64,000 nt of DNA from an uncultured Solirubrobacterales bacterium (GCA_963842375.1 CAWJGB010000013.1:170665-234664), one strand, 5' to 3'; shown: positions 1-16,754, counted from the first letter of the stretch. A program made the numbers and translations. Notes: a model not told the origin generated them from the letters alone.

Positions 1-38
1 CGATGAGGTGCGGCTAGGTGCTTTGGGAGTCATCCGGT

Positions 39-52: not shown

Positions 53-84
53 ATTTTCGGGTCGTTGTGGTGGTTTGTCGAGTT

Positions 85-101
85 CCCGCCCTCGGGGCGG
101 C
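85..101 (-). terminator. GC-rich hairpin about 10 nt after the stop of the 111..929 gene (no U-tract)
   Basis: The ccgcc/ggcgg stem with a 5-nt loop can be read directly. Its position just 3' of the stop codon fits a terminator, but the U-run is missing, so this is weak. Confidence 0.3.
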
Positions 102-110
102 GGTCACCGC

Positions 111-929
111 CTATGGCACCTGGTTATAGGCGGTGACCGCCCAGGTGCCTTCGCCTTCTATAATTTGTGCTTCACCTTCTGCTCCTTCCGGCCCTTCGAG
201 ATAGACCAGGAAGCCCCAGGGAGAGGCTTCTTCGAAGCTACCGCCGAACCCCTGTGCCTGCCTCTTATGTACTTCGCTGAAGTGGTGAGAAGGACCCACT
301 AAAGACTGGGTGTGCGCTTCGTATACACAGAGCCAGCCGGGGGCTGCGGTCGGGAACTTAATGGTGCCTGTGCATCCTTCTCCGTTTCCGCCGTGTTCTT
401 GTTGTTGTGTCGTGACGAACCGAGCCTGACCTTCTTGGATTCCGACTGGGTTGTTGAAATTTTCTTCAGGGAAGAAGGGTGTCAGTGGGATCGGGTAGGT
501 GATTCCCGCCTTAATATCTACCCCAATGGGGGCATTGCTAATTACACCGGACCCATAATCCGACCAGACACCGGTCTCGGTCTTGCCGGGGGGGAGGGTT
601 TCGGGGTATGAGGCGGGGTTGCCCGGTTCGCCTTTGGGGCCCTGTTCGCCTTTGGGGCCTTCTTTGCCTAGGGCACCGCTTGTTCCGTTGGTTCCGTTGG
701 CGCCGGCGGGGCCCGCAGGGCCGGGCTTGGAGTTCGCCTTGATCAGGGCGAGGACCTGGGCCTTGGTGAGCGCCTTGGCCTTGGAGGCGGTGGCATGGGA
801 GCCGCCTCCGTTCGCCGCGTAGGCGCCGCCGCCGAGGGCGAGGACGATGGCGAGGACGGAGAGGACGAGGCCGGCGGGGCCGAACTGGTCGCGCAGCGCG
901 GCGTAGGACGTGCGTAGGGACTTGGACAT
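111..929 (-). CDS. Collagen-like (G-X-Y repeat) protein with N-terminal signal-anchor and Cys-containing C-terminal globular domain
   Basis: Start reassigned to ATG 929 (MSKSLRTS), with ggaggag about 12 nt upstream. Hydrophobic anchor GLVLSVLAIVLALGGGAYAA. About 12 G-X-Y triplets (GPAGPAGANGTNGTSGALGKEGPKGEQGPKGEPGNP). The C-terminal domain shares GNGEGCTG...PTAAPGWLCVYE...GTWAVTA with the next gene. Confidence 0.85.
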   Translation of the reverse strand: MSKSLRTSYAALRDQFGPAGLVLSVLAIVLALGGGAYAANGGGSHATASKAKALTKAQVLALIKANSKPGPAGPAGANGTNGTSGALGKEGPKGEQGPKGEPGNPASYPETLPPGKTETGVWSDYGSGVISNAPIGVDIKAGITYPIPLTPFFPEENFNNPVGIQEGQARFVTTQQQEHGGNGEGCTGTIKFPTAAPGWLCVYEAHTQSLVGPSHHFSEVHKRQAQGFGGSFEEASPWGFLVYLEGPEGAEGEAQIIEGEGTWAVTAYNQVP

Positions 930-1151
930 GGTTATCTCTCCTCCTGGGAGTTGAGCGTGAAGAGGAGATGCCCTCCACACACGGGCGTGGCGGCGATCGA
1001 GCAGGGGTCGGCGACCCGAGCGATGGCGCTGGGGCGGGACAGCGAGTTGGAATTAGGGGTTTTGGAAGTCATCGGTTAGTCGGCATGTGGGCTTGGGTTG
1101 ATGTGGCGTGTGTTGGTCGTGTGTGCTTTGTGTGGGTCGCGCGCCCGGCTC

Positions 1152-1180
1152 CCGGAGCGGCCCGCGCTTGGCCGCCCCGG
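1152..1180 (-). terminator. Stable GC hairpin downstream of the second collagen-like gene
   Basis: ccgg-a-gcggcc / loop cgcgctt / ggccgc-c-ccgg, read directly. It lies about 20 nt 3' of the stop at 1201. No U-tract. Confidence 0.35.
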
Positions 1181-1200
1181 GAGGGGTGTGGTGAGGTGGG

Positions 1201-1935
1201 CTATTCGGCGGTCACCGCCCAGGTGCCGAATGCCAGCTCCCTTCTTAGTACAGGCGGTCCAGATTCCTGTGTAGAAATCCTGACCGTGGCACCCCATTGA
1301 TAGGCCGATTCGGACTCTTCAGGTCCCCATACTTCCTGGCGTATTGCGCCAGCACCACCGCGTTCGTAGACGCAGAGCCAGCCCGGAGCGGCGGTCGGAT
1401 GACGGTTACTTCCTGTGCATCCTTCTCCGTTACCACCCCCGAATTGTTGAGATGTGGTGACGTACCGAGCTTGCCCGTGTTTGATCCCCACTTCTTCTTC
1501 TTCAGAGATCACGGGGGCGAGCGGAATCGGGAAGGTGATCCCGGTCATGAGTTCTGCGTCGTAGGGTTCTTCAGCATTGGTTAACCCAGCGATCGCCCAG
1601 ACGCCGATCTCGGTCTTGTGGGAGGGGAGGACTTCGGGGTATGAGGCGGGGTTGCCCGGTTCGCCTTTGGGGCCCGGTTCGCCTTTGGGGCCCGGTTCGC
1701 CCTTGGGGCCGGGGGCGCCGTTGGAACCGTTGGCGCCATTCGTACCGTTGGCGCCGTTCTTGCCGGCGTACTTCTTGGCGATCTTTTCAACTTCCTTGCG
1801 CTGGCCGGAGGTCAGCTTGCCGGCGGCGTAGGCGCCGCCGACCATCGCCATGAGAAGGGCGAGGATGGCGACGGTGAGGCCGGCCTTGCCGAAGGGCTCG
1901 CGGATGGCGCGAACGGGGTGCTTGAGACGTTGCAT
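1201..1935 (-). CDS. Collagen-like (G-X-Y repeat) protein, paralogue of 111..929
   Basis: ATG at 1935. Anchor GLTVAILALLMAMVGGAYAA. About 13 G-X-Y triplets, including three perfect GPKGEP units. The C-terminal domain is conserved with the first copy. Confidence 0.88.
   Translation of the reverse strand: MQRLKHPVRAIREPFGKAGLTVAILALLMAMVGGAYAAGKLTSGQRKEVEKIAKKYAGKNGANGTNGANGSNGAPGPKGEPGPKGEPGPKGEPGNPASYPEVLPSHKTEIGVWAIAGLTNAEEPYDAELMTGITFPIPLAPVISEEEEVGIKHGQARYVTTSQQFGGGNGEGCTGSNRHPTAAPGWLCVYERGGAGAIRQEVWGPEESESAYQWGATVRISTQESGPPVLRRELAFGTWAVTAE
1655..1708. repeat. 3 x 18-nt tandem repeat encoding (GPKGEP)3 inside the collagen-like gene
   Basis: The unit cccggttcgcctttgggg is repeated at 1655, 1673 and 1691. 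The last copy has one mismatch. Confidence 0.9.
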
Positions 1936-2000
1936 CAGGTTGCTTCTCCTTGGGTGATGCCCCCCGGGGTGGGCCGGCCGGCCTTGTTTGGCCGTCGCCG

Positions 2001-2303
2001 TTCGATCTGACCATTGAGACCCCCGCCCGCGGCTGCAAACCGGCGCCTGGCGACGTCCTCGGTCGGCCCCATAGCGCTGCTATGAGCCCTCCCTGCGTCC
2101 TTCTGGAGTTTCGGGATTTTTGCCTCGCCCTCGATACTGCGCTTGGGCGACGCCTGCGAATTTCCCCCTGTATTGCCCCCCACCCCCATTGCGGGGGAAA
2201 TTCGTTCCTCGTGCGTGCGTGCGCCCGAAAAATCCCGAAACTCCAGGTCCTTGCCAGGCTTGATTTTCGCTCGCGAGGCGTGCGCCCCAATAGTCAGATC
2301 GAA
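2001..2303. repeat. Nested imperfect palindrome of about 300 nt (three collinear inverted-repeat pairs)
   Basis: Outer pair 2001-2016 ttcgatctgaccattg / 2288-2303 caatagtcagatcgaa (15 of 16). Middle pair 2103-2121 ctggagtttcgggattttt / 2228-2246, a perfect 19-nt complement. Inner pair 2157-2168 cgaatttccccc / 2193-2204 gggggaaattcg (12 of 12). Confidence 0.85.
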
Positions 2304-3386
2304 TGTCTCCAGCCTGGGGATTTTTTGGGTGGTGGGACGAGGGCCTTGCCTAAACATGGGTGCGCTCCCCTCCTTGTCGGGTGTTGGTCGAGTGACTGGT
2401 GCTGCGGAAGACAAGGTGCACCTCCCTGCCCACCTACCTGCATGAGACGAGGCGGAGTCGCGGGCGCCGCAAGCACAGCGCGCGTCGGGCAAGCCCAACG
2501 CTGTAAGGCGAGCGGCTGGCGACTCCTTGGTGGGCAGAGGGGCGGAAGCTGTGAGGGCCTCTCCCCCGCTCCCGAGGGACGAGGTGGAGGTGGTGGTCCC
2601 GGGGTGGTGAGGAGGGACGAAGCGCCTACTGCGAAAAGGGCGGGTAGGTCGGCAGGAGGCGCTGCGCCGGTGGGCTTGTGAGGGTCGGGGGCCTGCGCGT
2701 AAGCAGCGCGCCCTGCCGACCTGAGGGGATTGTGGGCCGCGGTCGCGGTCAAGGCGCTCGCTGCAAATGCTGCGCCACTCGCTCGCTGCGCAAAGGAATC
2801 AGATCGTGATGCTTGCTCGCGCGGGCTTGCGGTCGCTCGGCCTCGGCCTTCGGCCACCCTTCGGGTGAGTGCGGCCCGGCTGGGGGGGGTGGAACAGACG
2901 CGGGCGACCTCTAGACTGGGGATGGGAAGTCCACCAAGCATCGTTGAGGCCGCCCGCGTAACTGCTCCGGTGAGCCCGTCCGGATCGGGCTCGGAAACGG
3001 CCCCGGGGGCCAGGGAAGACTCCGGGTGCCGCCAATGCCGGCGAGGGGACGCGGGCGGCCCTGGCGCCGGGGGCAGGGAGCACCCCGAAGCCTGGGAAAG
3101 GGCCGCCCCTCCTATTGCTCGCCCTTGCGCCACCCACTCAGGAGAGCAGCGGGGGGGCGCAACTTTTAAGGTCGGGACCGGGCACGAGGGTGCGGGAAGG
3201 TGTGGTCGGCGAGGGGCAGACAGCGGGCGCTCGGTGCAGGCCGAGGCTGCTTCGTCGTCCCAACTGCAAGCGTTCACTCAAACTCCCCCTTCTGCCGGCC
3301 GCTTCCCGAGCGGCCCCCGTAGAACTCGGACTTTCTTGTCCCCATCGCGGGCGGACAAGCCAGATCGTGGCAGGAAGGGAGATGAT

Positions 3387-3402
3387 TGTCAAGAGCGGTA
3401 CA
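3387..3402 (+). promoter_or_regulatory. TGTCA-N6-GTACA motif copy 1 (candidate operator), upstream of D1
   Basis: tgtcaagagcggtaca, read directly. Confidence 0.55.
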
Positions 3403-3451
3403 CAAGATTTGTAACGGGAGGTACCGGCTTTGTCAATCCTGGACCCAAATC

Positions 3452-3467
3452 TGTCACCTCCAGTACA
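3452..3467 (+). promoter_or_regulatory. TGTCA-N6-GTACA motif copy 2, 40 nt upstream of the D1 start
   Basis: tgtcacctccagtaca, read directly. Confidence 0.55.
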
Positions 3468-3506
3468 TCCATTTTGTCCTCGCCCTGACTATCGTGAGCG
3501 CCGGAA

Positions 3507-4835
3507 ATGGCGACAACGGACCCTGTGCCGCAGCAGAGCGGGCCACTGCTTCCAAAGCTGAGCCCAGCAAGGGGGCGCCTGACGCCACAGCTAATCGCTC
3601 GCAATCAGCGCGGGCGCCTGCAGTGGGCGATGGTGGAAGCCGTGGCCCAGCACGGCTTCGCCGGCGTAACGCTGCGCGAGCTAGTCGGGCTGGCGGGAGT
3701 GTCGAAGACGACGTTCTATGAGCACTTCGACTCCAAGCAAGACTGCTTTCTCGAGACCTACGACGAGATCGTCTCCCGGGTCACGACGCGAGTCGGCGAG
3801 GCCTACAGGGAGCCGGGCGATTTCCATGCGAGGCTGGTGAGAGCGCTTTCGACCTTCATGGAGCTGGTTGTGGAGGAGCCGGCGGCGGCGTCTTTCGGGG
3901 TGGTCGAATCGCTGACCCTGGGCAGCGCCGGAGTAGCACACCGCGAACAGAGCTCGAGGGCCTTCGAGCTGATGATCCAGCAGAGCTTCGAGCACTCTCC
4001 ATCTGAGGAGGAGGTGTTGCCGATCACGGTGAGAGCGATCGCCGCCGGTATTCGGGGAGTTGTCTACCGGCGGCTGCGGGCCGGCAGCTGCGAGGATCTA
4101 CCCGACCATGTCGAGGAGCTGGTCGATTGGGCCCTCGGCTACCAGCGGCCGGTCAGCGAGTCGGTCCGAAGGGCCATCGAGGCGGCCCAGATTCCGGGTC
4201 TGAGCGTGGAACCAGCAGCCCGCGAGAACGATGCGGACGAGCCTGACTGGGATGAGCCCCCTGACAGCCGCCGCAGCCGGGCTGAGCTGACCCAGCGTGA
4301 GCGGATCGCCAGGGCAGCGGCTCGGGTGGTGGTCGAGAAGGGCTATGAGGCACTGAGCATCCCGGCAATCTCGGCCGTGGCGGGGACCTCCAATCAGACC
4401 TTCTACGAGAACTTCTCCACCAAGCGAGACGCTTTCCTGAGCGCATTTGAGATTCTCACGGAGAAAGCCCTCGCGACCACCGCGGCGGCCTTTGAGGCCG
4501 CGGGCGACCGACCTGAGGCGATCGGTGCCGCGATACGGGCGATGCTGGAGCACATCGCGGCGAACGATCTGTTTGCCCGCCTCGCTTTCTTTCAGCTTCC
4601 GACCGCGGGTCCGGTAGCACTCGATCACGCCGATCCCGTGATGGACCGCTTCAATTCCCTCCTTGAGCCGGGCACCGCGTCGGGTGGGAGAAACGGTCCG
4701 TTGCCGGGCGTGATCTCTGAGGCAGTTGGAAGCGGTATCTGGTCGGTGATTCAGCACGAGATTGCGCACGAGCGGACGGAGTCGCTACCCGAACTGGCGC
4801 CCGAGATCACGAGAGTCGCGCTCGGATCGCGCTAA
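3507..4835 (+). CDS. Single-chain double-TetR transcriptional regulator (D1)
   Basis: 442 aa with two TetR HTH units: TLRELVGLAGVSKTTFYEHF and SIPAISAVAGTSNQTFYENF. The linker is WDEPPDSRRSRAELTQRERI. Confidence 0.9.
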   Translation: MATTDPVPQQSGPLLPKLSPARGRLTPQLIARNQRGRLQWAMVEAVAQHGFAGVTLRELVGLAGVSKTTFYEHFDSKQDCFLETYDEIVSRVTTRVGEAYREPGDFHARLVRALSTFMELVVEEPAAASFGVVESLTLGSAGVAHREQSSRAFELMIQQSFEHSPSEEEVLPITVRAIAAGIRGVVYRRLRAGSCEDLPDHVEELVDWALGYQRPVSESVRRAIEAAQIPGLSVEPAARENDADEPDWDEPPDSRRSRAELTQRERIARAAARVVVEKGYEALSIPAISAVAGTSNQTFYENFSTKRDAFLSAFEILTEKALATTAAAFEAAGDRPEAIGAAIRAMLEHIAANDLFARLAFFQLPTAGPVALDHADPVMDRFNSLLEPGTASGGRNGPLPGVISEAVGSGIWSVIQHEIAHERTESLPELAPEITRVALGSR

Positions 4836-4866
4836 GAACCTGAGCGAGACTGCCTGAACGGCTCGC

Positions 4867-5517
4867 TCAGGCCTGCGCCAGTCGTCTCGCCTCGGCGGAC
4901 CCCAGGTAGGGGGTGAGGAGCAGCTCGAGGAACTCGGGCTCAAGTGTGAGGAGGAGGTCGGCCTCTTCAGCCAAGAGGTGGCCCGAAATGAGTGAGGTGA
5001 TGCCGCCAATGAGGCTCTGCTCAGTCGATTCGGGCAGCGAGGCACCGAGGGGGTAGCGGGCGCGGCCCTCGCGAAGACGAGAGGCAAGTCGCCTGATCAG
5101 GGCCTGTTGGCGCTCGGTCGCCACCGGACCCGACCCAGCCACCTCGACGGTGAAAACCCTGGCATGAACAGGTGCTTCGGTGAGGAAACGAAGGGCAGCA
5201 TCGAGTGCGGCCTTGACCCGAGAAGGCCAGTCGCGCTCGACATCGCAATCTTCCATGGCATGGGCCCAGAGACGCTCGATGAACCTCTCCTGAGCGGCGA
5301 GGAGGGCGGCGCGGATGTCGTCGAAGTGCGCGTAGAACGTGTCCTCGTTGAGGTCCGAACGGCGGAGGACCAGCTCGACGGTGAGGGCGTCGTAGCCATA
5401 TTCGGCGGCGGCCTTGGTCACCGCAGCGATGAGGAGATCGCGCTCCTCCGTGGGGCTCGACGTGGACTCGCTGTGGGCGCCGATCCGGGAGGCTCGCCTG
5501 GGTTGGTCATCGGCCAC
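4867..5517 (-). CDS. TetR-family transcriptional regulator (classical single unit, s1)
   Basis: 216 aa. HTH region LLIAAVTKAAAEYGYDALTVELVLRRSDLNEDTFYAHF. Convergent with D1 and divergent from D2. Confidence 0.9.
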   Translation of the reverse strand: MADDQPRRASRIGAHSESTSSPTEERDLLIAAVTKAAAEYGYDALTVELVLRRSDLNEDTFYAHFDDIRAALLAAQERFIERLWAHAMEDCDVERDWPSRVKAALDAALRFLTEAPVHARVFTVEVAGSGPVATERQQALIRRLASRLREGRARYPLGASLPESTEQSLIGGITSLISGHLLAEEADLLLTLEPEFLELLLTPYLGSAEARRLAQA

Positions 5518-5550
5518 GGTAGAACCAGCTTATGGAGGTATCGAAATCTC

Positions 5551-5566
5551 TGTCAAGCTGAGTACA
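5551..5566 (+). promoter_or_regulatory. TGTCA-N6-GTACA motif copy 3, centred in the s1/D2 divergent intergenic region
   Basis: tgtcaagctgagtaca. There are 33 nt to the s1 start (5517) and 33 nt to the D2 ATG (5600). Confidence 0.6.
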
Positions 5567-5599
5567 CGCTGGCAACCGACGCGGGCTATCGTGGATGGG

Positions 5600-6955
5600 A
5601 TGGCGGCGACTTCAGAGGGTCCTGAATCGCTCTTTCGGAGACTTTCAGGAAGGCCGGGAGGGATTGGGCAGGAGGCGGTCGCCCGCCATCAGCGAGCGCG
5701 ACTCGAGGGAGCGATGCTAGAGGCGGTGAGGCGCCACGGCTATGCGACAGTGACGCTGAGGGAGCTAGTGGGGCTGGCCGGGGTCTCCAAGAGCACCTTC
5801 TATGAGCACTTCGACGATAAGCAGGCGTGCTTCCTGGCGACCTTCGAGGAGATCGTCGCCCTAGGGGTAGAACAAATCGAGGCGGCCTATGGCTCAGAGC
5901 AGGGGCCCGAGAAGCGGCTGCGAACGGCCTTCGAGCGGCTCGCCGAGCTGGTCGCCGAGCAACCGGCGGAGGCCGCACTGGTGATCGTCGACTCGGTCAG
6001 CCTAGGGGCGGCCTCGGTAGAGCCGCGGGCACGCGTCGCCCAGATCTTCGAGTCGCTGATCCACGAGAGCGCGGCGGAGATCGGGCATGGTGGCGGTGTG
6101 ATCTCGAGGGTGACCACACGGGCCATCGTCGGCGGGATCCGCAGCCTCATCTATCGCTCGCTGCGCGCCGGGAATCCCGAGCGTCTCCGAGGGTATGCCG
6201 CCGAGCTGGTGCAGTGGGGGCTGGACTACCAACTCGAGGCGGAACGTCGTGCCGCAGGTGCCGCGGACGTGGGGGCACGGCTAGTGGCGGCGCTTGGCTC
6301 GGATGCAATTGAGAGGGCGGAGAGTCCGGAGGAGTCGTCGGAGGGATCGAGCCTTGCCTGGGAAGAGCCCGCGAACAGCGAACGCTCACGCGCCGAACTC
6401 AGCCAGCGGGAGCGAATGTTGCGAGCCACAGCCCAGGTAGCAGTGGAGAAGGGCTATGCACGGCTCAGCATCCCAGCGATCTCCGCGGCGGCGGGAACCT
6501 CCAACCAGACTTTCTATGAGCACTTCGACTCCAAGCAGACGGCCTTTTTGGCCGCCTATGAGGCACTTGTGCGAAGAGCACTTGAGAGGATCGCCACCGC
6601 CGTCGCGGCGCAAGATGACTGGCTGGAGGGAACGGCGGCCGGGATCGTCGCGCTGCTCGGCTGCTTCGTGCGAGACCCGATGTTGAGGACGCTGGCATTC
6701 GTCGAGAGGCCAGCGGCGGGCGTGGCGGCACTTGACCGGGCCGAGACGCTGCTCGATCTGTTCACGGCGTTCCTGCGGCCGGAGCCGCTCCCCGCGAACG
6801 TTGCCCGGCGCCCGCCCGACGTAGTGATCGAAGCTATGGCCGGAGGGGTTTGGGCCGCGGTCGAGGGCGAGACCACAGGGGGATTGGTCGACTCGGTGCC
6901 GGAGTTGGCCTCAGAGCTGCTGAACATCGTTCTGGTGCCGTTCGGGGTGTTATGA
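5600..6955 (+). CDS. Single-chain double-TetR transcriptional regulator (D2)
   Basis: Start moved from the track's 5414, which overlaps s1, to ATG 5600 (MAATSEGPESLF). An in-frame GTG at 5591 is also possible. HTH units TLRELVGLAGVSKSTFYEHF and SIPAISAAAGTSNQTFYEHF. Confidence 0.88.
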   Translation: MAATSEGPESLFRRLSGRPGGIGQEAVARHQRARLEGAMLEAVRRHGYATVTLRELVGLAGVSKSTFYEHFDDKQACFLATFEEIVALGVEQIEAAYGSEQGPEKRLRTAFERLAELVAEQPAEAALVIVDSVSLGAASVEPRARVAQIFESLIHESAAEIGHGGGVISRVTTRAIVGGIRSLIYRSLRAGNPERLRGYAAELVQWGLDYQLEAERRAAGAADVGARLVAALGSDAIERAESPEESSEGSSLAWEEPANSERSRAELSQRERMLRATAQVAVEKGYARLSIPAISAAAGTSNQTFYEHFDSKQTAFLAAYEALVRRALERIATAVAAQDDWLEGTAAGIVALLGCFVRDPMLRTLAFVERPAAGVAALDRAETLLDLFTAFLRPEPLPANVARRPPDVVIEAMAGGVWAAVEGETTGGLVDSVPELASELLNIVLVPFGVL

Positions 6956-7220
6956 CGATGTCGTGTCATAACACCCCGAATGCCGACCCACCTGGGCGAG
7001 CACCGCCTGGCTTCGCGGTCAAGTGGCCGAAGCCAGCGGCCCGAGCCTTGGTGAGGCAGGCGACCCGGGCGTCGAGGCCGGGACAGCCCCGGCGCCCGAG
7101 GGTCCTGCATCATGGCGCCGTCTCCAGGGAGCAGACGACGGCCGCATGGCTTCGTCCCAGGGAAAGACGGCAGTCGATTTTGCGCCATCCCGTATTCATG
7201 TCGGCCCTCTTCGGGCTCCG

Positions 7221-7256
7221 TGTCAATGACGGTACACCGATGTAAGCACCGGTACA
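7221..7256 (+). promoter_or_regulatory. Two adjacent motif copies (tgtcaatgacggtaca and tgtaagcaccggtaca) upstream of D3
   Basis: Read directly at 7221-7236 and 7241-7256. The second copy has TGTAA instead of TGTCA. Confidence 0.5.
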
Positions 7257-7335
7257 TACATTGTCAACAGGAGGAGCCCGGTGGTCAGCCGCGTCGGCGA
7301 GCGGAGTGGACGGCCGGGTCTATCGTGAGGGGGCG

Positions 7336-8661
7336 ATGACACCGGCCTCCCCCCTTCCCGAGCCGCTGTTCCCGAGCCTCGCAGGACGGCGCGGTGAGAT
7401 CGGGCCCCAGCAGGTCGCGCGCCACCAGCAGGGCCGCCTTCAGGGGGCGATGGTGGAGGCGGTCGCCCGCCATGGTTACGCGACGACGACGGTCGGGGAG
7501 CTGGTGGCTCTGGCGGGGGTATCGAAGAGCACCTTCTACGAGCACTTCGGAGGCAAGCAGGAGTGCTTCCTGGCCACCTTCGATGAGATCGTCACCCAGG
7601 CCAGCGAGCGGGTAGGAGTCGCCTATCGGTCGGAGACGGGATTTCGGGAGCGGCTGAGGGCAGCGATGGAGGCGTTCGTCGAGATCGTCGCCGAGGCGCC
7701 GGCGGCCACAGCGCTCGTGGTCGTCGACTCGCTCAGCCTGGGGGCGGCTGGAGTGGGACCCCGCGAGCGCTCGGTTGAGGCCTTCGAGTTGATGTTCCGC
7801 CAGAGCTTCGCGCAGGCGCCCGAGCGCGGCGAGGTCTCGCAGGTAACGACCCGGGCGATCGTCGCCGGCATCCGGCGGGTCGTCTACCGCTGCCTGCGCG
7901 AAGGTCGGCCCGAAAAGTTCCGCGACCATGCCGAGGAGCTGCTGGAGTGGGCGCTGGCCTATCAACGCCCGGGCGTAGCGCCAGGCTCCGCGGCGACGTC
8001 GATTGCCCTCTCCACCCCCACGAAGACGTCAGCGAAGGAGTCCCAGACGGACGCACCGAGCTGGGATGAGCCCCCTGACAGCCGCCGCAGCCGGGCTGAG
8101 CTGACCCAGCGTGAGCGGATCGTCCGTGCGGCGGCGCTGGTAGCGACGGACAATGGTTATGAGTCGCTCAGCATCCCGGCGATCTCCGCGGCGGCGGGAA
8201 CCTCCAACCAGACCTTCTACGAGCACTTCGCCAGCAAGGAGGAGGCCTTCATCGCCGCCTTCGACGCCCTTGCCGGACAAGCCCTGCGCGCCGGCACCGC
8301 CGCGGCGGCGGCGAGGCGCGGCGACTGGATCGAGTCGGTCGGCGCGGGGATCCGGGGGCTGCTGGAGTTCATCGTAGCCAACCGCCTCTTCGCGCATCTC
8401 GCCATCTTCCAGCTGCCGACCGCGGGGGCAGACGCGCTGGACCACGCCGACGCAACGGCGCGACGCTTTACCTCCTTTCTGGAGCCAGACGCCCTGCCCG
8501 ATGGGCTGGGCGCGCCCGTGCCGGCGGTGGTGATCGAGGCGATCGGCGGCGGGGTGTGGGCGGTGATCCAGCACGAGATCGCGCACGAACGGGTGGCCTC
8601 GCTGCCGCAACTGGCACCACAGATTGCGAGGATCGTGCTGGCACCATTGGGTGCGAGGTAA
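7336..8661 (+). CDS. Single-chain double-TetR transcriptional regulator (D3)
   Basis: Start set to ATG 7336 (MTPASPLPEPLFPSL) by analogy with the paralogues. HTH units TVGELVALAGVSKSTFYEHF and SIPAISAAAGTSNQTFYEHF. Confidence 0.88.
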   Translation: MTPASPLPEPLFPSLAGRRGEIGPQQVARHQQGRLQGAMVEAVARHGYATTTVGELVALAGVSKSTFYEHFGGKQECFLATFDEIVTQASERVGVAYRSETGFRERLRAAMEAFVEIVAEAPAATALVVVDSLSLGAAGVGPRERSVEAFELMFRQSFAQAPERGEVSQVTTRAIVAGIRRVVYRCLREGRPEKFRDHAEELLEWALAYQRPGVAPGSAATSIALSTPTKTSAKESQTDAPSWDEPPDSRRSRAELTQRERIVRAAALVATDNGYESLSIPAISAAAGTSNQTFYEHFASKEEAFIAAFDALAGQALRAGTAAAAARRGDWIESVGAGIRGLLEFIVANRLFAHLAIFQLPTAGADALDHADATARRFTSFLEPDALPDGLGAPVPAVVIEAIGGGVWAVIQHEIAHERVASLPQLAPQIARIVLAPLGAR

Positions 8662-8678
8662 GCCCAGAGCGCCCAGAC

Positions 8679-9329
8679 TCAGGCTTGCGCCAGGCGCGTC
8701 GCCTCCGAGCGCCCTAGGTAAGGGGTGAGGAGGAGCTCGAGGAACTCGGGCTCCAGTGCATGGAGAAGGTCGGCCTCTTCGGCCAAGAGGTGGCCTGAGA
8801 TAAGTGAGGCAATGCCGCCAATCACAGCCTGCTCTGTCGATCGGGGCAGTGTGGCGGCGTCAGGGTAGTGGGCGCGGCCCTCGCGAAGACGAGAGGCGAG
8901 GCGCTCGATCAGGGACAGCTGACGCCCGGTCGCGACCGGGCCGGCAGCAACTACCTCAACCACGAAAACCCTGGCATGGGCCGGCGCGTCGGTGAGGAAG
9001 CCGAGGGCAGCGTCGAGTGCCGCCTTTACCTGGGCCGGCCACTCGCGTTGCACATCGCAAACTTCCATAACGTGGGTCCAGAAACGCTCGAAGAATCTAT
9101 CTTGCGCAGCCAGCAGACTGCGGCGCATGTCGGCGAAGTGCTCGTAGAAGGCGGCCTCCGTCAGGCCCGCGCGGCGAACCACGAACTCAACCGTGAGGGC
9201 GTCGTAGCCGTATTCCGCGGCGGCCTTGGTGATCGCGGCAATCAAGAGATCGCGCTCCCCCGTAGCGCTCGATGTGGACTCGCTGCGGGAATCGATCCGA
9301 GAGGGGCGCTTGGGTTGATCGTCAGACAC
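8679..9329 (-). CDS. TetR-family transcriptional regulator (classical single unit, s2), paralogue of s1
   Basis: Start set to GTG 9329 (VSDDQPKRPSRIDSRSES). This aligns with MADDQPRRASRIGAHSES of s1 and gives the identical 651-nt length. Confidence 0.85.
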   Translation of the reverse strand: MSDDQPKRPSRIDSRSESTSSATGERDLLIAAITKAAAEYGYDALTVEFVVRRAGLTEAAFYEHFADMRRSLLAAQDRFFERFWTHVMEVCDVQREWPAQVKAALDAALGFLTDAPAHARVFVVEVVAAGPVATGRQLSLIERLASRLREGRAHYPDAATLPRSTEQAVIGGIASLISGHLLAEEADLLHALEPEFLELLLTPYLGRSEATRLAQA

Positions 9330-9361
9330 GGCGGGCCAGCTTATGGATGCATGGGAGTTTC

Positions 9362-9377
9362 TGTCAAGCTGAGTACA
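9362..9377 (+). promoter_or_regulatory. TGTCA-N6-GTACA motif copy 6 in the s2/D4 divergent intergenic region
   Basis: tgtcaagctgagtaca, identical to copy 3 and 32 nt from the s2 start. Confidence 0.6.
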
Positions 9378-9458
9378 TGCTGCACAAAGTGTGGTGGCTT
9401 CCCATCTGAGTGCGACGAGCTCGGCCTGACGGGGGCGACGCGGGCTATGGTGGATGGG

Positions 9459-10793
9459 ATGTCGCCAGCGTCGAGGGGCTCTGATAGAAGCCCTGAACCG
9501 ATTTTCCCGGGACTTGCGGGAAGGCCGGGAGGGATTGGGCGTGAGGAGGTCGTCCGCAATCAGCGAGCGAGGCTGGACGGAGCAATGCTGGAGGCGGTGA
9601 GGCGCCACGGCTACCCGGCCGTGACTATTGGCGAGCTGGTGGGGCTGGCCGGGGTCTCCAAGAGCACCTTCTACGAGCACTTTGCCGACAAGCAGGAGTG
9701 CTTCTTCGCTGCTTTCGACGAAGTTATGGCTGCGGTCACCGAGCAGATCGGGCGCGCGTACAGATCAAAGTCCGACTTTCGAGAGCGACTATACGCAGCG
9801 TTCCAGGCATACGTAGAGTTCGTCATCGAAGAACCTGCGGGGACTCATCTGACGCTCGTGGACTCGCTCAGCCTGGGGACTGCGGGGGTGGCCCGGCGGC
9901 GAGAAGCGGCAGAAGCCTTCGAGTTGATGATTCGCCAGAGCTTTGAGCAGACGCCTGAGCGGGGCGATGTCTCCGACCTTACGATTCGAGCGATCGTGGG
10001 CGGCATCCAGCGTGTCGTCTTCCGATGCGTGAGGAGCGGGCAAACCGCGCAGTTGCGCAATAACCTTGAGGACTTAGTCAATTGGGGCCTCTCCTACCAG
10101 CGCCCTGGCGGTGCCGCAGCTTTACAAACACGGGCGGGTGGGTCGACCGCACCGAAGCCCAAGGCCACAGACAGCACAGCCGATGAGGAAGTCTGGGACG
10201 AGCGGCCCGACAGCCTCCGCAGCCGCGCGACGCTGACGCAGCGCGAGCGGATGGTTCGTGCGGCGGCCATAGTGGCTGCCGAAGGTGGCTATGCAAAGCT
10301 CAGCATCCCAGCGATCACGAGCGCTGCGGGAGTCTCCAATCAGACCTTCTATGAGCACTTCACCGGCAAACAGCAGGCGTTTTTGGAGGCCCTCGAAATT
10401 CTTGGTCGGCGCGCCGTGGTCCGAATCGCCGCTGCGACTAAAGCTAAGGAGGCTTGGACTGACTCGGTCGGTGCCGGGCTGGAAGAGCTACTGAAATATT
10501 CTGCCGAATATCCACTGCTTTCCCGGCTCCCGTTCATCGAGGTGCTGGCCGCGGGATCTCCCGGACTTGACCACGTCGATCTGCTGATGGACAGCGTGAC
10601 CGCCTTGATCAATTTCAGCGCTGCCCCCGCGGCGGTGGGCGGACCCCTGTCCGACGTCGTTATTGAGGCGATCGGTGGCGGCATCTACGCGGTGATCCAA
10701 AACGAGGTGGCGGAGGGCCGGACGGAGGCGCTGCCCGGACTCTCGCGGGAGATCACCTTCATTGCGCTAGCGCCGTCGGCATGGCGTAGGTGA
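9459..10793 (+). CDS. Single-chain double-TetR transcriptional regulator (D4)
   Basis: Start at ATG 9459 (MSPASRGSDRSPEPIFPGL) or ATG 9447. The track ORF from 8868 overlaps s2 and is rejected. HTH units TIGELVGLAGVSKSTFYEHF and SIPAITSAAGVSNQTFYEHF. Confidence 0.85.
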   Translation: MSPASRGSDRSPEPIFPGLAGRPGGIGREEVVRNQRARLDGAMLEAVRRHGYPAVTIGELVGLAGVSKSTFYEHFADKQECFFAAFDEVMAAVTEQIGRAYRSKSDFRERLYAAFQAYVEFVIEEPAGTHLTLVDSLSLGTAGVARRREAAEAFELMIRQSFEQTPERGDVSDLTIRAIVGGIQRVVFRCVRSGQTAQLRNNLEDLVNWGLSYQRPGGAAALQTRAGGSTAPKPKATDSTADEEVWDERPDSLRSRATLTQRERMVRAAAIVAAEGGYAKLSIPAITSAAGVSNQTFYEHFTGKQQAFLEALEILGRRAVVRIAAATKAKEAWTDSVGAGLEELLKYSAEYPLLSRLPFIEVLAAGSPGLDHVDLLMDSVTALINFSAAPAAVGGPLSDVVIEAIGGGIYAVIQNEVAEGRTEALPGLSREITFIALAPSAWRR

Positions 10794-10848
10794 AATCCAT
10801 CCTCGGCGATAACAAAGGGAGTCATCGCGCCGGCGGATTGGGGCAATC

Positions 10849-12153
10849 GTGACCGGGCCCGAACCGCTTTTCCCGAAGCTGCCGCCGGGCCGAACCGAAA
10901 GAAGTCCGAAGGAAACCGCCCGCCATCAGCGAGCCCGGCTGATGGGCGCGATGGTAGAGGCGGTCTCTCGTAACAGATACCAAGCGACAACGCTGCGCGA
11001 GCTGGTCTCGCTGGCGGGGGTATCAAACTCGACCTTCTATGAGCACTTCGACTCAAAGCAGGACTGTTTCCTGGCGACTTTTGATGAGATCGTCGCGTTG
11101 GCGAGCGAGCGGATCGAACGCGCCTATAGAGCAGAGTCCGCTCTTCGGGAGCGGCTGCGCGCAGCCTTCGATGAGTTGATGGACATCTTGGCTGAAGAGC
11201 CCGCGGCGACGCATCTGGTGATCGTAGACTCACTCAGCCTGGGTGCAGCGGGGGTGATCCGCCGCCAGCGCATGGCAGAGAAATTCGAGCTGATGTTCCG
11301 CCAGAGCTTTGAGCAGGCGCCTGAGCGCGGTGAAGTCTCCGATCTGACGATCCGAGCAATCGTCGGCGGCATACGAAGTGTCGTCTACCGCAGCATCCGG
11401 GGAGGAGAAACCGGCGAATTACGCAAGCACGTCGGCGAGCTACTCGACTGGGGTCTTTCCTACCAGCGCCGAGGTGGTGCGAGCGCTTCGCGATTGCCGA
11501 CCACAGCGTTCAAGCCGACATTGACAGCCACCGAAGGATCGGACGATGAGCCAGGGTGGGACGAGCCCCCCGACAGCCCTCGCAGCCGCTCGAAGCTGAC
11601 GCAACGCGAGCGGATTGTCCGTGCGGCGGCGAGGGTGGCCGACCAGACGGGCTATGAGTCGCTCAGTATTCCGGCGATCACAAGTGCCGCGGGAGTATCA
11701 AATCAGACCTTCTACCAGTCCTTCCGGAGCAAGCAGGAGGCATTCCTAGCTGCACTCGACATTCTCGGCCCCCGCTCCTGGCCTCAGATCATCGCGGCGA
11801 CTCGAGCTCAGGAGGGCTGGATCGACGCGGTCGGCGCCGGGCTCAGAACGCTCCTGACATCTATCGCAGAAAATCCACTCTTTGCCCGGCTCGCGTTCAT
11901 TGAGGCACTCACAGCAGGGTCCGTCGCGGCGGATCGCGCCATTGGGGGAACTGAAAGAGTCACCGCCCTGTTCAATTTCAGCGCGATTCCCGCCGGCCTG
12001 GGAGCGCGGCCGCCCGACATCGTTGTCGAAGCGATCGGCGGCGGCATCTGGCTGGTGATTCAACACGAGGTAGCGCAAGGGCGGACGGAGTCGCTGCCGG
12101 AGCTGACGCCCGAGATCGCCTACATCCTACTAGCGCCCTTCGGCGCGGTATAG
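10849..12153 (+). CDS. Single-chain double-TetR transcriptional regulator (D5)
   Basis: GTG start. HTH units TLRELVSLAGVSNSTFYEHF and SIPAITSAAGVSNQTFYQSF. It lies only 55 nt after D4 with no motif between them, so the two are probably co-transcribed. Confidence 0.88.
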   Translation: MTGPEPLFPKLPPGRTERSPKETARHQRARLMGAMVEAVSRNRYQATTLRELVSLAGVSNSTFYEHFDSKQDCFLATFDEIVALASERIERAYRAESALRERLRAAFDELMDILAEEPAATHLVIVDSLSLGAAGVIRRQRMAEKFELMFRQSFEQAPERGEVSDLTIRAIVGGIRSVVYRSIRGGETGELRKHVGELLDWGLSYQRRGGASASRLPTTAFKPTLTATEGSDDEPGWDEPPDSPRSRSKLTQRERIVRAAARVADQTGYESLSIPAITSAAGVSNQTFYQSFRSKQEAFLAALDILGPRSWPQIIAATRAQEGWIDAVGAGLRTLLTSIAENPLFARLAFIEALTAGSVAADRAIGGTERVTALFNFSAIPAGLGARPPDIVVEAIGGGIWLVIQHEVAQGRTESLPELTPEIAYILLAPFGAV

Positions 12154-12502
12154 GCCACTCACCGAAGAGCAACGTTCGAGGAAGGTGACGCAAGGATCGA
12201 GAATCAGCGGCTCCCGGCAGCAGCTTTGACAGGAGGGAAGTGTGCCCGGAAAGTCCGCTTGTGGGGGCTCCACATGGCGCTTTGTTGAACTGCCTCTTTT
12301 GGCATGCAAGCGCCCCGAACGCAGAAAGGAAAGAGACCCGCGGCCGGGGGACGCCTGCACTACTCAGCGCCGTCCCAGGGAAAAGACGGCGTTATTGCCA
12401 TTCAAGTCAACCCCTGCCCGACTCTCGCCGATCTGGGGCGACTCTGGATGGACGGTGGGAAGCCGCCACCCGAGGCGGATGATAGGCCGGAGCGAGAGCG
12501 AT

Positions 12503-12540
12503 TGTCAAGGCCTCTACATATAGATGTCAAGGTCGCTACA
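12503..12540 (+). promoter_or_regulatory. Two tandem variant motif copies (TGTCA-N6-CTACA) with no obvious downstream gene
   Basis: tgtcaaggcctctaca at 12503-12518 and tgtcaaggtcgctaca at 12525-12540, read directly. Confidence 0.45.
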
Positions 12541-13119
12541 GATTCCCTTTCACAACCCTGCTCGGCGGTCCAGCCGCTCGATTGCCGGGGTGGCCCGCAC
12601 CTGGGCGTGCGCGCCTCCGTGACTTTGCAGGTGGGTGCGCCCTGCGGAAGCCGATGTCGTGATGCGGATGGACTTGTCGGCTTCGCTTGGCCGACCCCGC
12701 GGCTGCTGGGTCCGGGGATTGGGAATATCGGCGGAAGATCGATTGTTCGATGGCGGGTGAGAGCAGGCGTTCATCTTGTGCTCGGGTAGGTGGGCGGCTA
12801 CGGCCAATACCGCGAAGATCCCCATCAGGACACCGAGAACCAGCGGGCCCATCATTATCAGTTGCGACCGAATGGTCGGCCGGCTCGGTTGAGGTGACAC
12901 AGCGTCTCCCTTGTCGATGCGCCCGTGCCCGGGCTGTGGTGTAGGTCGCGCGAGCGACCCTCTCATCCCCAAGACGCAGAAAGGACGTGGATCGATACCC
13001 CGCTAAACCGGCGAGGGGGATCCTCACCCCAGACCTCAGGTGGAGCCCCCTCCACCTGCGGCGCCAGGCACTCGTCGATGATGGTGGCGACTTCGACGCG
13101 GCGCTCGGGGAACCGACCT

Positions 13120-13435
13120 TCAGAGGCCGAGGAGAACAACGAGGGCCTCGTCGACGGCGCGCAGCTCGGCGGCCCCGAGGCGGCCGGCGAAGTCCTTCGA
13201 GCCGTTCGATGTCGAGCGCGCGCAACTGCTCGACCATCACGCGCGTTCGCTCCCCGGCGAGTACCACCTCGGGGCGGAAGGTGGCTGGCCGTACGCTGCG
13301 TGAGGTGGGCGCGACCAGCACTGTGGAGAGCCCGAGCAGCTCGTCGGTCTGCACGAGCACGGCATAACGGGGGCCGAACTGGTCGCGACCGCGACGCGAC
13401 GGCAGCCGCACGCGGTAGACATCGCCGCGTGTCAA
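13120..13435 (-). pseudogene. mazF: MazF/PemK-family toxin with an apparent +1 frameshift
   Basis: TTG start at 13435. The N-terminal 80 aa, MTRGDVYRVRLP...GPRYAVLVQTD...VLVAPTS...VEQLRALDIERLE, is typical PemK/MazF. The expected C-terminus DFAGRLGAAELRAVDEALVVLLGL-stop is in the next frame and ends at 13120. The span is 316 nt, which is 3n+1. The track ORF running on to 12536 is read-through. Confidence 0.8.
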
Positions 13436-13680
13436 TCTGGCCAGTCAGCGGCGATCGCGTCCATGTCGGCCATAACGCGGGCGACCGCCGCGCGGTCGGC
13501 GGGGTCGGCCGCCAAGCGCTGCACCTCCTCGGCGAGTGCGGAGCGGCTTCGGCGCCTAGCAGCCGCCTCGCGGAGTGCAGTGCGCACGGCCTCGGAGTCG
13601 CTGATTGCGCCACTGCCACGGACGATGTTGAGGGCGGCGACGGAGCTGTCGTCGAGGCGGACGTGGAGGGAGCGGGGCAT
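13432..13680 (-). CDS. Ribbon-helix-helix type antitoxin partner of MazF
   Basis: Start set to ATG 13680 (MPRSLHVRLDDSSVAALNIV...). 82 aa. Its TGA stop overlaps the TTG start of mazF (ttga). Confidence 0.75.
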   Translation of the reverse strand: MPRSLHVRLDDSSVAALNIVRGSGAISDSEAVRTALREAAARRRSRSALAEEVQRLAADPADRAAVARVMADMDAIAADWPD

Positions 13681-13690
13681 GGGAAGTAGC

Positions 13691-13709
13691 GTAGCATGAA
13701 ATGTGCTAC
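13691..13709. promoter_or_regulatory. Palindrome GTAGCA-N7-TGCTAC just upstream of the antitoxin gene (candidate autoregulatory operator)
   Basis: Read directly, 11 nt upstream of the 13680 start and preceded by the direct repeat gtagcgtagc. Confidence 0.4.
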
Positions 13710-14034
13710 ACATGACCATGACATGCGCCGCAAGCGGCGCTGCCTGTAGGGGAAGTTCGCAGCGGCGTCATCTCCACAACTCGCGTGCCAGGCATCCGTC
13801 GAAGTGCGGGGAGAGGTCGACTTCGGTGGGCGAGGCACGCTCGGGCAGGGGGCGGGACGAATCGTTGGACAGAGGGCCATCGCCGGGATAAGGATTGGAG
13901 GTGGGATTTGACCCCCAGGTCCTTTTGGCCGTGCGGGAGCTCGTCAATTCGGCCGAGCCCTGAATCCCACGCGAGCGAACGGGGCGGGGCTAGGCTGGGG
14001 CCGACTCTTATCTGTGTCACGACAGGAGGGAACG

Positions 14035-14628
14035 ATGCTCAAAGGACTCCGCCGCCCCTCGCCGGCGCTGCTCGTCTCGCTGATCGCCCTGTTCGCGGCG
14101 CTGGCAGGGACCGTCTACGCCGCCAGCAAGATCAACGGCAAGACAATCAAGGTGAAGTCGATCCCAGGCAACCGGCTGACACCGGGCTCGCTGCCGGGCA
14201 ACCGCCTGAAGGCGAACTCTGTGACCGGATCGCAGGTCGACGAGTCGACGCTGGGCCAGGTGCCGAGCGCCAACAACGCCCAGAACGCGATTGCGGTCGA
14301 CGGCCACACCGCCGGCTGCCCGGCGGGGACGAAGCCATTCGCCGGCGCCTGCTGGGAGACGACGGCGCGCGGCGCGGCGAGCGAGCCTTCCGCGGCCCAG
14401 GCGTGCACCGAAGCCGGCGGTCAGCTGCCCGACGCGCTCAGCCTGCGTTCCTTCGCGCTGACGCCGGGGGTCACACTCGACGCCGGTGGTGAGTGGTCGA
14501 ACAGCATCAACGAAGTCACCGGCGAAAACGCATACACCGGCGTCACCGTCTCCCCCACCGGAGCCGTCAACCTCGACAATCAGACCGACGCTAAGAAATT
14601 CCGCTGCGTGCTGCCGCTCCTTCGCTGA
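14035..14628 (+). CDS. Secreted or anchored hypothetical protein sharing the N-terminal anchor type of the collagen-like proteins
   Basis: ATG 14035 with aggaggg 7 nt upstream. Anchor PALLVSLIALFAALAGTVYAASK. Repeated PGNRL segments. C-terminal domain contains four Cys. Confidence 0.75.
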   Translation: MLKGLRRPSPALLVSLIALFAALAGTVYAASKINGKTIKVKSIPGNRLTPGSLPGNRLKANSVTGSQVDESTLGQVPSANNAQNAIAVDGHTAGCPAGTKPFAGACWETTARGAASEPSAAQACTEAGGQLPDALSLRSFALTPGVTLDAGGEWSNSINEVTGENAYTGVTVSPTGAVNLDNQTDAKKFRCVLPLLR

Positions 14629-14705
14629 GCGCCGTTGCCCGATATGCAGAATAGCCTCAACGGTCGCCGGGATCGAGGAGCCCAGGAATAGGATGGCGAG
14701 GCCCG

Positions 14706-14831
14706 ATGACGACCCTTGCCGCCATCACCGTCGGCGAAATCGTCGAGATCGTCCTGATCATCGGATTCACCACCCTGTTCACGATCAACCGCGTTCGCCG
14801 CTTCAAAGCCTTGCGCCGTCGCAGGCGCTGA
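14706..14831 (+). CDS. Possible 41-aa single-pass membrane peptide (below the ORF-track cutoff)
   Basis: My translation: MTTLAAITVGEIVEIVLIIGFTTLFTINRVRRFKALRRRRR-stop. Hydrophobic helix followed by a basic tail, with mostly G/C third positions. Confidence 0.3.
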   Translation: MTTLAAITVGEIVEIVLIIGFTTLFTINRVRRFKALRRRRR

Positions 14832-14959
14832 CCATCGCGAGTCAGCCCGAGCCTGCCCCGACCGCGTGGCCACAGTGACGGCTGCGCGGTCGGGCAAGGT
14901 TCTCCCGGACATGAAGGCATGTTCGAATCCGGGCCACCTGACCAAAGCTGACCAGTCCG

Positions 14960-15175
14960 TCAAGGCCGCGTGAACAGGTCCCAGTTCCGGGTCCGACCGT
15001 CGCGCGGTCGAGACATGTACTCGGTTGCCGAGCTGCGGCCGACTCTCTCCTGTAAGGAGGCGAAGGCGGCGTCGCGGGTGAGCCCCTTGCGGTGCCCGAA
15101 TGCTTTCCACTTACCCTGCGCATCGCGGTAGCGAAAGTCGAAGATCACCGCCTCGACCGTAGACGATGTCGGCAT
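14960..15175 (-). CDS. Small hypothetical ORF; the N-terminal half faintly resembles an integrase arm-type DNA-binding segment
   Basis: MPTSSTVEAVIFDFRYRDAQGKWKAFGHRKGLTRDAAFASLQE... No supporting downstream domain was found. Confidence 0.2.
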   Translation of the reverse strand: MPTSSTVEAVIFDFRYRDAQGKWKAFGHRKGLTRDAAFASLQERVGRSSATEYMSRPRDGRTRNWDLFTRP

Positions 15176-15391
15176 CCCTCGCGCAATCGGCGCTCACGCG
15201 TGCCAGGGACTATTCGGGCGTAGGCTTCCGACATCGTCTCCGTATCCGCTTCGACTTCATTCGGCGCTGGAGCCAGACGGCGGCAGCGGGAGATGACTCC
15301 AGAGGCTTGGCGTAGGGCAGCCCTTGCATCACCGGATATCCTTGGCGCAGACCGGCGCCGTGGGCGCGCCAGGCAAACGGAGGGGATGGGC

Positions 15392-15769: not shown

Positions 15770-15943
15770 CCCAAGGCCGATCGGCCTTGGGCGATACCCG
15801 ACACGGTCGACTTCAGGCAGGTCACATTGACCGCCTGAAGCGTCCTGTGCGCTTACAAGCCTGATCACCGTTTTCACCTCGCAGGGTGACATCGGCCGTT
15901 TCGGCACTCCTACCGATGGATCCTTAATGGGGTCGCCCTGGCA

Positions 15944-16732: not shown

Positions 16733-16754
16733 GATGGATCCTCCGTATTGTTGT

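Follow-up and report, generated by a model that had tools for sequence, protein, structure and literature searches.

A directional, asymmetric DNA motif predicted to be the operator of double-TetR proteins in Solirubrobacterales

Introduction

Mce3R (Rv1963c) from Mycobacterium tuberculosis, the prototype double TetR, is a single-chain, asymmetric TetR that binds nonpalindromic 25-bp sites with two nonidentical helix-turn-helix (HTH) motifs, places Arg53 and Lys262 in the major groove and forms a dimer with room for two DNA sites (PMC11667970). A study from 2013 predicted over 200 double-TetR proteins in Actinomycetes (PMC3711444). Here we describe a family of double-TetR proteins, referred to as D, together with a 16-bp directional motif, TGTMA-N6-STACA, that accompanies the D genes. 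The analysis started from a stretch of 64,000 nucleotides from an uncultured Solirubrobacterales bacterium (GCA_963842375.1, CAWJGB010000013.1:170665-234664), hereafter called the window, which contains an array of seven TetR genes: five for double (D1 to D5) and two for single proteins (s1 and s2). In the literature searched for double, tandem or fused TetRs, only the two papers cited above were relevant, and the D family and its operator are described in neither.

The sites, with their polarity, conservation across the family and promoter geometry, were determined computationally, as were the predicted fold of one D protein and the covariation between protein and site. We consider it likely that the D proteins of the array read the motif and that it serves as their operator. 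The principle of a double TetR acting on an asymmetric operator was known before from Mce3R, and sequences and structure model together suggest that the D family is most likely a clear new example of it.

The motif in the window

A pattern search of the window returned eight exact matches to TGTMA-N6-STACA, all on the plus strand and all inside the TetR array (Table 1), which reproduced the coordinates, sequences and strand listed in an initial annotation of the stretch. The expected number was 0.03 per window, and none of 100 dinucleotide-preserving shuffles reached eight. The stricter form TGTCA-N6-GTACA was matched five times compared with an expectation of 0.02, in line with an earlier hand estimate of well under one chance occurrence. 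When the whole window was scanned with a position-weight matrix (PWM) trained on the family, no site scoring >=10 was found outside the TetR array. The annotation had allowed for additional copies, and the scan added a weaker, in-phase one at 3410 (TGTAACGGGAGGTACC); two sub-threshold copies that keep the left half only were seen by eye at 3431 and at 7262, the latter directly after the 7221/7241 pair. The site at 3387 opens an array of sites located between D1 and the divergent gene 2294-3277(-). The site at 5551 is 33 nt from both divergent start codons, as had been noted, provided that s1 starts with the GTG at 5517 and D2 with the ATG at 5600. C at position 12 (CTACA) occurs only in the sites at 12503 and 12525.

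Genes were called from codon-position G+C and Pfam, and Pfam confirmed all seven of the TetR proteins that had been proposed. Each of D1 to D5 contains two stretches matching TetR_N, at residues ~42-83 and ~256-318, with PF00440 scores of 73-80 bits, while the single proteins s1 and s2 have one weak match each, with 24.9 and 34.2 bits, respectively (gathering cut-off 24). No further D or s homologs were found in the window.

Distribution of the motif in related loci

At least 858 homologs of D3 are present in public data, mostly in soil metagenomes. For the comparative analysis, we extracted 77 related loci (966 kb in total) from a scan of one genome per species, using peptide patterns from the two D recognition helices, and oriented each locus with D on the plus strand. 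All 77 come from metagenome-assembled genomes of Solirubrobacterales, Thermoleophilia or Conexibacteraceae. The pattern TGTMA-N6-STACA matched 98 times in this dataset, 96 times on the D strand, as compared to ~0.5 matches expected by scaling from the chance rate in the window. An iterated matrix gave 233 sites on the D strand versus 4 on the opposite strand, and the logo yielded the extended consensus tT-TGTCAAG-N3-GGTACA-yRa. The suggestion that the motif is confined to the TetR locus of the window thus holds within the 64 kb but not across the family.

Most of the PWM sites (192 of 233) directly flank a D or s gene, the majority of sites being located upstream of D. At least one site was present within 300 bp upstream of 61 of the 95 D genes. 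Of the 62 s genes, 48 have a site in front of the gene, in most cases at a distance of 31-35 nt from the start codon. A divergent pair forms the recurrent unit, in which s or a noncoding element on the left and D on the right share one or more operator sites between them; since D and s are convergent throughout, all sites fall on one strand. Half-site centres are ~10 bp apart, and neighbouring sites are mostly spaced by 21-24 bp, with a second group at 42-47 bp, which places the arrays on one face of the helix. The second site of an array is typically TGTAAA or TGTAAG rather than TGTCAAG (L003 5872-5938, L010, L012, L017, L019), and the pair TGTCAAnGACGGTACA plus TGTAAGCACnnGTACA recurs nearly unchanged in distant genomes (compare TGTAAGCACCGGTACA in the window with TGTAAGCACTCGTACA in L063, where the tandem pair of 7221/7241 is found at 1276/1295). 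The variant second site and the recurring pair indicate that the order in which strong and variant sites follow each other within an array is conserved.

We also scanned metagenome contigs with the DNA pattern alone. Chance matches in low-GC DNA dominate this dataset; of the 120 loci among the matches listed, 9 have a GC content >=0.60, and 2 of these 9 carry D or s. As evidence on a wider regulon, the scan counts neither for nor against one. An iron-repressor/metallo-beta-lactamase pair was seen among the high-GC pattern matches (L118). One unrelated high-GC contig (Ga0070730_10005919, L150) contains an exact motif at 8587-8602 between a cytochrome P450 gene and a divergent gene for a 205-aa TetR with TetR_N and TetR_C_8 domains, with no D homolog in view; this match may be due to chance or may reflect a single-domain TetR with a similar site.

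Asymmetry and promoter geometry

In essentially all of the 157 classified sites, position 5 carries A, and position 12 carries G or, in one clade, C/T. As A5 is paired against G12 or C/T12, the complementarity required of a palindrome is never found, and the half-sites, which had been described as similar but nonidentical, are truly asymmetric. The two-fold symmetric half-sites of a classical homodimeric TetR operator are thus not present.

Several promoters in the window can be read directly from the sites. In the s1 promoter, the left half of the site at 5551 provides a TTGACA hexamer, followed by a spacer of 18 nt, the -10 box TAAGCT (5532-5527) and the GTG start codon; the s2 promoter has the same arrangement, with TTGACA from the site at 9362, N18, TAAGCT (9343-9338) and GTG. 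The distance from the site at 9362 is 32 nt to the s2 start (9329) but 81 nt to the D4 start (9459). Likewise, each of the sites at 12503 and 12525 contributes, with its left half, the TTGACA -35 box of a promoter directed leftward. On the other side, -10-like boxes (TATCGT or TATGGT) are located 7-11 nt before the ATG codons of D1 to D4, so that these mRNAs are probably leaderless or nearly so; this applies in particular to D2, where the ATG follows 7 nt after TATCGT. The logo of sites beside s shows TA at -19/-18, and a minus-strand -10 box accompanies 73% of the sites beside s versus 24% of the sites elsewhere.

Read on the opposite strand, TGTCAA is the -35 hexamer TTGACA, and together with the -10 box at a distance of 18 bp in 73% of the sites beside s this would fit a motif that belongs to the promoter itself or that is bound by an unrelated global regulator, for example of the CRP/FNR type (TGTGA-N6-TCACA). 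Class II CRP sites have a 5-6-5 layout and are centred at about -41.5, and the 16-bp motif recalls them both in layout and in its position of ~-41.5 at D2/s1. Such explanations nevertheless appear extremely improbable. The right half, GGTACA, is as conserved as the left half, yet it plays no part in the promoter towards s; the core TGTCA/GTACA is never palindromic, unlike CRP sites; and the motif is restricted to D/s loci, as seen from its flanking genes and from the lack of any other copy in the 64 kb. Furthermore, it covaries with a residue in D (see below), and sites upstream of D without a leftward -10 box retain the full motif. That the asymmetry could be a by-product of the -35 box was ruled out, since sites upstream of D genes with no s nearby are asymmetric as well: A5 versus G12 is found in 100% of the sites beside s and is equally strict in the 116 sites upstream of D that have no s on the left.

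Identity of the protein that reads the site

The D recognition helices are nearly invariant, with entropies of 0.0-1.3 bits, although this is in part an ascertainment effect, since the loci were retrieved by peptides of those helices. The helices of D1 to D4 are identical. Residue 64 in the first DNA-reading head of D covaries with position 12 of the site. K or R at residue 64 (K-type) occurs with G12 in 50 of 52 genes, while N64 (N-type) occurs with C/T12 in 9 of 9 genes. Thus, heads of the form GVSK/R(S/T)TFY are associated with the right half-site GGTAC, and heads of the form GVSN(T/S)TFY with (G/C)CTAC or (A/G)TTACT. The second head (SNQTFY) and the left half TGTCAAG both stay constant while the right half varies with head 1. 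A Lys or Arg residue in contact with guanine is chemically ordinary. On the strength of this residue-base switch (K/R64 with G12, N64 with C/T12), we favour, with some reservation, the assignment of head 2 to the left half, TGTCAAG, and of head 1 to the right half, GGTACA.

D4 is K-type and has a G12 site, and it branches beside the N-type clade. D5 is the only N-type paralog in the window, and the only two C12 sites, at 12503 and 12525, follow D5. The same layout is seen in L039, L068 and L075. From these sequence relationships we predict that D5, with Asn64, uses the CTACA sites at 12503/12525, which probably represent a separate specificity class.

We also considered that s1 and s2 might, as homodimers, read an imperfect palindrome, TGT-N10-ACA, and autoregulate, with the asymmetry arising as a by-product of the promoter. 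The s proteins are genuine TetR homologs, the best-placed sites lie at a fixed distance of 31-35 nt from the s start codons, and an operator in a gene's own promoter is the textbook layout for TetR; in the metagenome contig L093, an s-like TetR gene is located beside a site with no D on the contig stretch in view. However, from genome to genome the recognition helix of s is hypervariable, with 2.2-2.9 bits at four base-reading positions in 62 s proteins, next to a constant site. The variable helix against an invariant promoter site is seen for s1 and s2 in the window and for 60 homologs (L001-L077), and the helices in the window are acidic (LNEDTFYAHF in s1, LTEAAFYEHF in s2). Sites are also retained in D loci that have no s within 6 kb (such as L004, L020, L030, L039, L061, L066-68, L073 and L075), and this includes the entire N-type clade, which has no s. 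The asymmetry is equally strict at sites other than s promoters, and the change in the right half tracks the D residue and not s. We therefore judge it very unlikely that s is the reader.

An arrangement in which both proteins act at the sites, with s competing, titrating, anti-repressing or co-repressing so that the D-s pair forms a two-component switch, agrees with the convergent D-s pairing conserved in most K-type loci, with the homology of s to both halves of D (23-28% identity), with the wiring of s expression to a D-type site and with the higher-order dimers formed by Mce3R. Nothing specific favours a protein-protein contact, the hypervariable helix of s speaks against a common DNA target, and loci with only D function without s. 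A joint action of D and s is accordingly an unlikely alternative to a site read by D.

Predicted fold of the D proteins

D proteins contain two TetR units in one polypeptide of ~400-450 aa. The AlphaFold2 model of D3, built with 61 sequences, has a mean predicted local distance difference test (pLDDT) score of 89.9 and a predicted template modelling (pTM) score of 0.88, and consists of ~20 helices in two TetR-like halves. In a Foldseek search of the PDB with this model, the top match and the only full-length one was 9b7y_A, Mce3R bound to DNA (E 3e-8, 438 columns, 15% identity). In the predicted structure, the two units form an intramolecular pseudo-dimer that resembles the solved Mce3R.

A profile search of the PDB gave no sequence homology to Mce3R beyond the generic HTH. 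The match to 9b7y covered query residues 259-310 versus residues 16-67 of the chain (E 6.5e-7), with no stretch passing alone, and head 2 of D aligned best with the M1 head of Mce3R. The low identity of 15%, the likeness limited to the HTH and the match of head 2 to the M1 head suggest that D and Mce3R are possibly independent fusions. Judging from the model, D may work like Mce3R, while a common descent of the fusion is not supported.

Evidence for and against D as the reader

The initial annotation had proposed that a fused double TetR would be the reader of the nonpalindromic site. This proposal draws support, at the level of sequences and predicted structure, from the polarity of the sites, their independence of s, the fold, the conservation of the helices and the covariation. 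Beside the ascertainment effect mentioned above, a number of observations weigh against it. A total of 34 of the 95 D genes have no site scoring >=12 within 300 bp upstream. The covariation stems from only about two independent evolutionary events, and the Fisher p of 3e-9 for the gene-level counts of the K/R-type and N-type (50/52 versus 0/9) is inflated by shared ancestry, since the N-type proteins form one clade; moreover, the change in the right half is confounded with the loss of s, since the N-type loci also have no s. The structural match between D3 and Mce3R is moderate, with template modelling (TM) scores of 0.49/0.54 and a root-mean-square deviation of 8.6 A, and the likeness in sequence is confined to the HTH. 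Finally, at D3 and D4 the sites are separated from the -10 box downstream of them by 64-68 nt and fall outside the -10/-35 geometry, so that simple occlusion cannot account for every site, and the D2 site is centred at ~-41.5, a position that is also used by class II activators.

A conserved noncoding element

The 350 bp between D5 and the site at 12503 contain a noncoding element of ~200 nt that is conserved in other loci. Copies were found in L068 (7346-7541), L075 (7335-7537), L039 (10036-10241), L020 (8421-8619) and L066 (7344-7550), a partial copy in L061 (5707-5854), and a decayed piece in front of the 7221 pair in the window (~7140-7200). The element always abuts a D-type site, and it fills the slot of s in the N-type clade that lacks s. 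Its indels are not multiples of three, and no conserved plus-strand gene follows the element-plus-site unit in the six loci.

The best sigma-70-like promoter of the locus (TTGACA at 12508-12503, N18, TATCAT at 12484-12479, minus strand, 11 of 12 positions) points leftward into the element. No Rfam match was obtained at E <=1 on either strand of positions 1-20000 of the window, and RNAalifold on both strands of six copies revealed a few compensatory pairs but an unfavourable covariation term (+1.65, +1.06). As a candidate, a small RNA (sRNA) controlled by D is a reasonable guess.

Proposed mechanism

In the mechanism that we propose, each D would be a single-chain pseudo-dimer with two different DNA-reading heads approximately one helical turn apart, and the site would be directional because the heads differ. 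The C-terminal head, G(T/V)SNQTFY, would read the constant left half, and the N-terminal head, GVSK(S/T)TFY, would read GGTACA with Lys/Arg64 matched to G12. In promoters that are leaderless or nearly so, the sites would overlap the -35 region or lie immediately upstream of it. We infer that D binds there and represses rather than activates: at s promoters, it would cover the -35 hexamer and block RNA polymerase, so that s is repressed, and autoregulation, probably cooperative, would result from the one to four sites in ~21-bp phase in front of D. A ligand would release D from the operator. D5, at 12503/12525, would act on the leftward promoter into the noncoding element.

The DNA-binding domains of the D paralogs are 69-73% identical, as compared to 44-53% for the ligand-binding domains. 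Given the identical helices and diverged ligand-binding cores of D1 to D4, a single operator code could therefore serve several sensors. This picture can be extended to a multi-input hub, in which D1 to D4 with different pockets compete for a shared directional operator code, while K64N together with G12 to C/T creates an orthogonal channel for D5 and its clade that controls a hitherto undescribed sRNA of ~180-200 nt in place of s. We regard this extension as tentative and on balance doubtful. If true, it would provide a readable head-by-head code for asymmetric TetR operators and a new class of regulator-controlled sRNAs in Thermoleophilia.

Gene content of the locus

The coordinates of the features are listed in Table 1. 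D5 is probably cotranscribed with D4, since there is no site in the 55-bp gap after D4. Two scenarios for the array were rejected. A decayed sixth D gene was not found right of 12540, nor was a D relic left of 3500 (E <=1), and a recent tandem duplication disagrees with the placement of the five paralogs in different old subfamilies, with identities of 42-60%.

Table 1. Coordinates of operator sites, genes, promoter boxes and the noncoding element in the window
Feature	Position	Strand	Remarks
Divergent neighbour of D1, 327 aa	2294-3277	-	No Pfam match; first gene of leftward cluster
Operator site TGTCAAGAGCGGTACA	3387-3402	+	Top-scoring copy, PWM 27.3
Weaker in-phase site TGTAACGGGAGGTACC	3410-3425	+	PWM 14.5; 23 bp after 3387
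Operator site TGTCACCTCCAGTACA	3452-3467	+	End 22 nt before D1 -10-like box
D1 -10-like box TATCGT	3490-3495	+	
D1, double-TetR, 442 aa	3507-4835	+	Head 1 GVSKTTFY (K-type), head 2 GTSNQTFY
s1, single TetR-like, 216 aa	4867-5517	-	Convergent with D1; weak TetR_N match
Operator site TGTCAAGCTGAGTACA	5551-5566	+	Common to divergent s1 and D2 promoters
D2 -10 box TATCGT	5587-5592	+	
D2, double-TetR, 451 aa	5600-6955	+	K-type
Tandem pair TGTCAATGACGGTACA + TGTAAGCACCGGTACA	7221-7256	+	Upstream of D3; 20 bp start to start
D3 -10-like box TATCGT	7321-7326	+	
D3, double-TetR, 441 aa	7336-8661	+	K-type; protein modelled
s2, single TetR-like, 216 aa	8679-9329	-	74% identical to s1
Operator site TGTCAAGCTGAGTACA	9362-9377	+	32 nt from s2 start
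D4 -10 box TATGGT	9446-9451	+	68 nt right of site 9362
D4, double-TetR, 444 aa	9459-10793	+	K-type head 1; branches next to N-type clade
D5, double-TetR, 434 aa	10849-12153	+	Sole N-type paralog in window; head 1 GVSNSTFY
Noncoding element, ~200 nt, candidate small RNA	12294-12501	- (inferred)	Conserved in other loci
Tandem pair TGTCAAGGCCTCTACA + TGTCAAGGTCGCTACA	12503-12540	+	22 bp apart

The segment consisting of s1, the intergenic region and the first ~80 codons of D2 resembles s2, its intergenic counterpart and the start of D4, with a DNA identity of 78-85% and protein blocks that are 60-82% identical (4866-5165 versus 8678-8977; 5525-5625 versus 9336-9484). The remainder of D2 is only 26-42% identical to D4, with the exception of the second DNA-binding domain. 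With the likeness restricted to the start, the promoter-proximal part may be of mosaic origin or have undergone gene conversion.

The window is G+C-rich (0.60-0.72). The G+C content of the first 20 kb is 0.60-0.68 versus 0.69-0.72 at 20-28 kb, and the first 20 kb may be an island. A megablast search of the locus against a plasmid collection gave no match.

Right of the array, minus-strand open reading frames (ORFs) were identified at 12536-13435, 13432-13719, 15944-16309 and 18557-19276. The first encodes a PemK/MazF-like toxin ORF of 299 aa, in which the toxin domain makes up the first 80 residues only, possibly a fusion or a read-through; a small ORF is found in the antitoxin position upstream of it. 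A DUF5615/PIN-like gene and an XhoI-type restriction endonuclease gene are also located on this side.

Left of the array there is a cluster of four minus-strand genes (111-980, 1201-1935, 1935-2498 and 2294-3277), two of which encode paralogous collagen-repeat proteins and two of which have no Pfam match. Elsewhere, the gene divergent from D often encodes a very large protein, up to >1900 aa, belonging to one homologous cluster and carrying NHL, Fn3 or beta-propeller repeats (L003, L010, L015, L018, L002, L012, L025, L021 and others); in one locus, it encodes an MMPL transporter. The divergent gene 2294-3277(-), the leftward cluster and the large repeat proteins are possible regulated targets of D.

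Significance

Among double TetRs, an operator has been characterised only for Mce3R, where it is long and poorly defined. The D family adds hundreds of natural sites with two crisp, unlike half-sites and a strict polarity, and its natural residue-base switch makes the recognition logic of single-chain TetRs testable. For synthetic biology, D proteins could provide compact, orientation-dependent and mutually orthogonal repressor-operator pairs that do not form unwanted heterodimers. With D genes located beside genes for large surface-repeat proteins, the system also offers a first handle on gene regulation in uncultured soil Solirubrobacterales.

Comparison with known systems

The closest system is Mce3R, with which D shares the organisation of two TetR units in one chain, predicted in D to form an asymmetric pseudo-dimer; the operator predicted for D is likewise nonpalindromic, with more than one site per control region. 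In Mce3R, a basic residue of each head is inserted into the major groove. The Mce3R sites are asymmetric 25-bp regions located 53 bp apart, whereas the D operator is compact, 16-21 bp, with two recognisable half-sites. Unlike Mce3R, D proteins are encoded by ancient paralogous genes arranged in tandem, together with a conserved convergent single TetR or a noncoding element, their hosts are Thermoleophilia and not mycobacteria, and their neighbours are genes for surface-repeat proteins rather than mce lipid-transport genes.

Like the classical TetR/tetO and QacR systems, D has TetR_N heads, half-sites one helical turn apart, an operator that overlaps divergent promoters and, as far as the site positions suggest, autoregulation; a ligand-induced release is assumed. 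It differs from them in that its site always has the same orientation and is in no case palindromic, and in that the reader appears to be one chain. Single halves of the D3 model have their best structural matches in FadR (Bacillus) and FasR (M. tuberculosis), with TMt scores of ~0.7-0.83. These are acyl-CoA-responsive proteins and, unlike D, single-domain homodimers; by analogy, they give only a hint of a lipid-like ligand for D. Engineered single-chain TetRs and tandem fusions likewise combine two TetR units per chain and embody the idea of head-specific specificity (PMC3711444). Those synthetic proteins are fusions of complete repressors that act on two palindromes, whereas D is a natural protein predicted to read one composite, asymmetric site.

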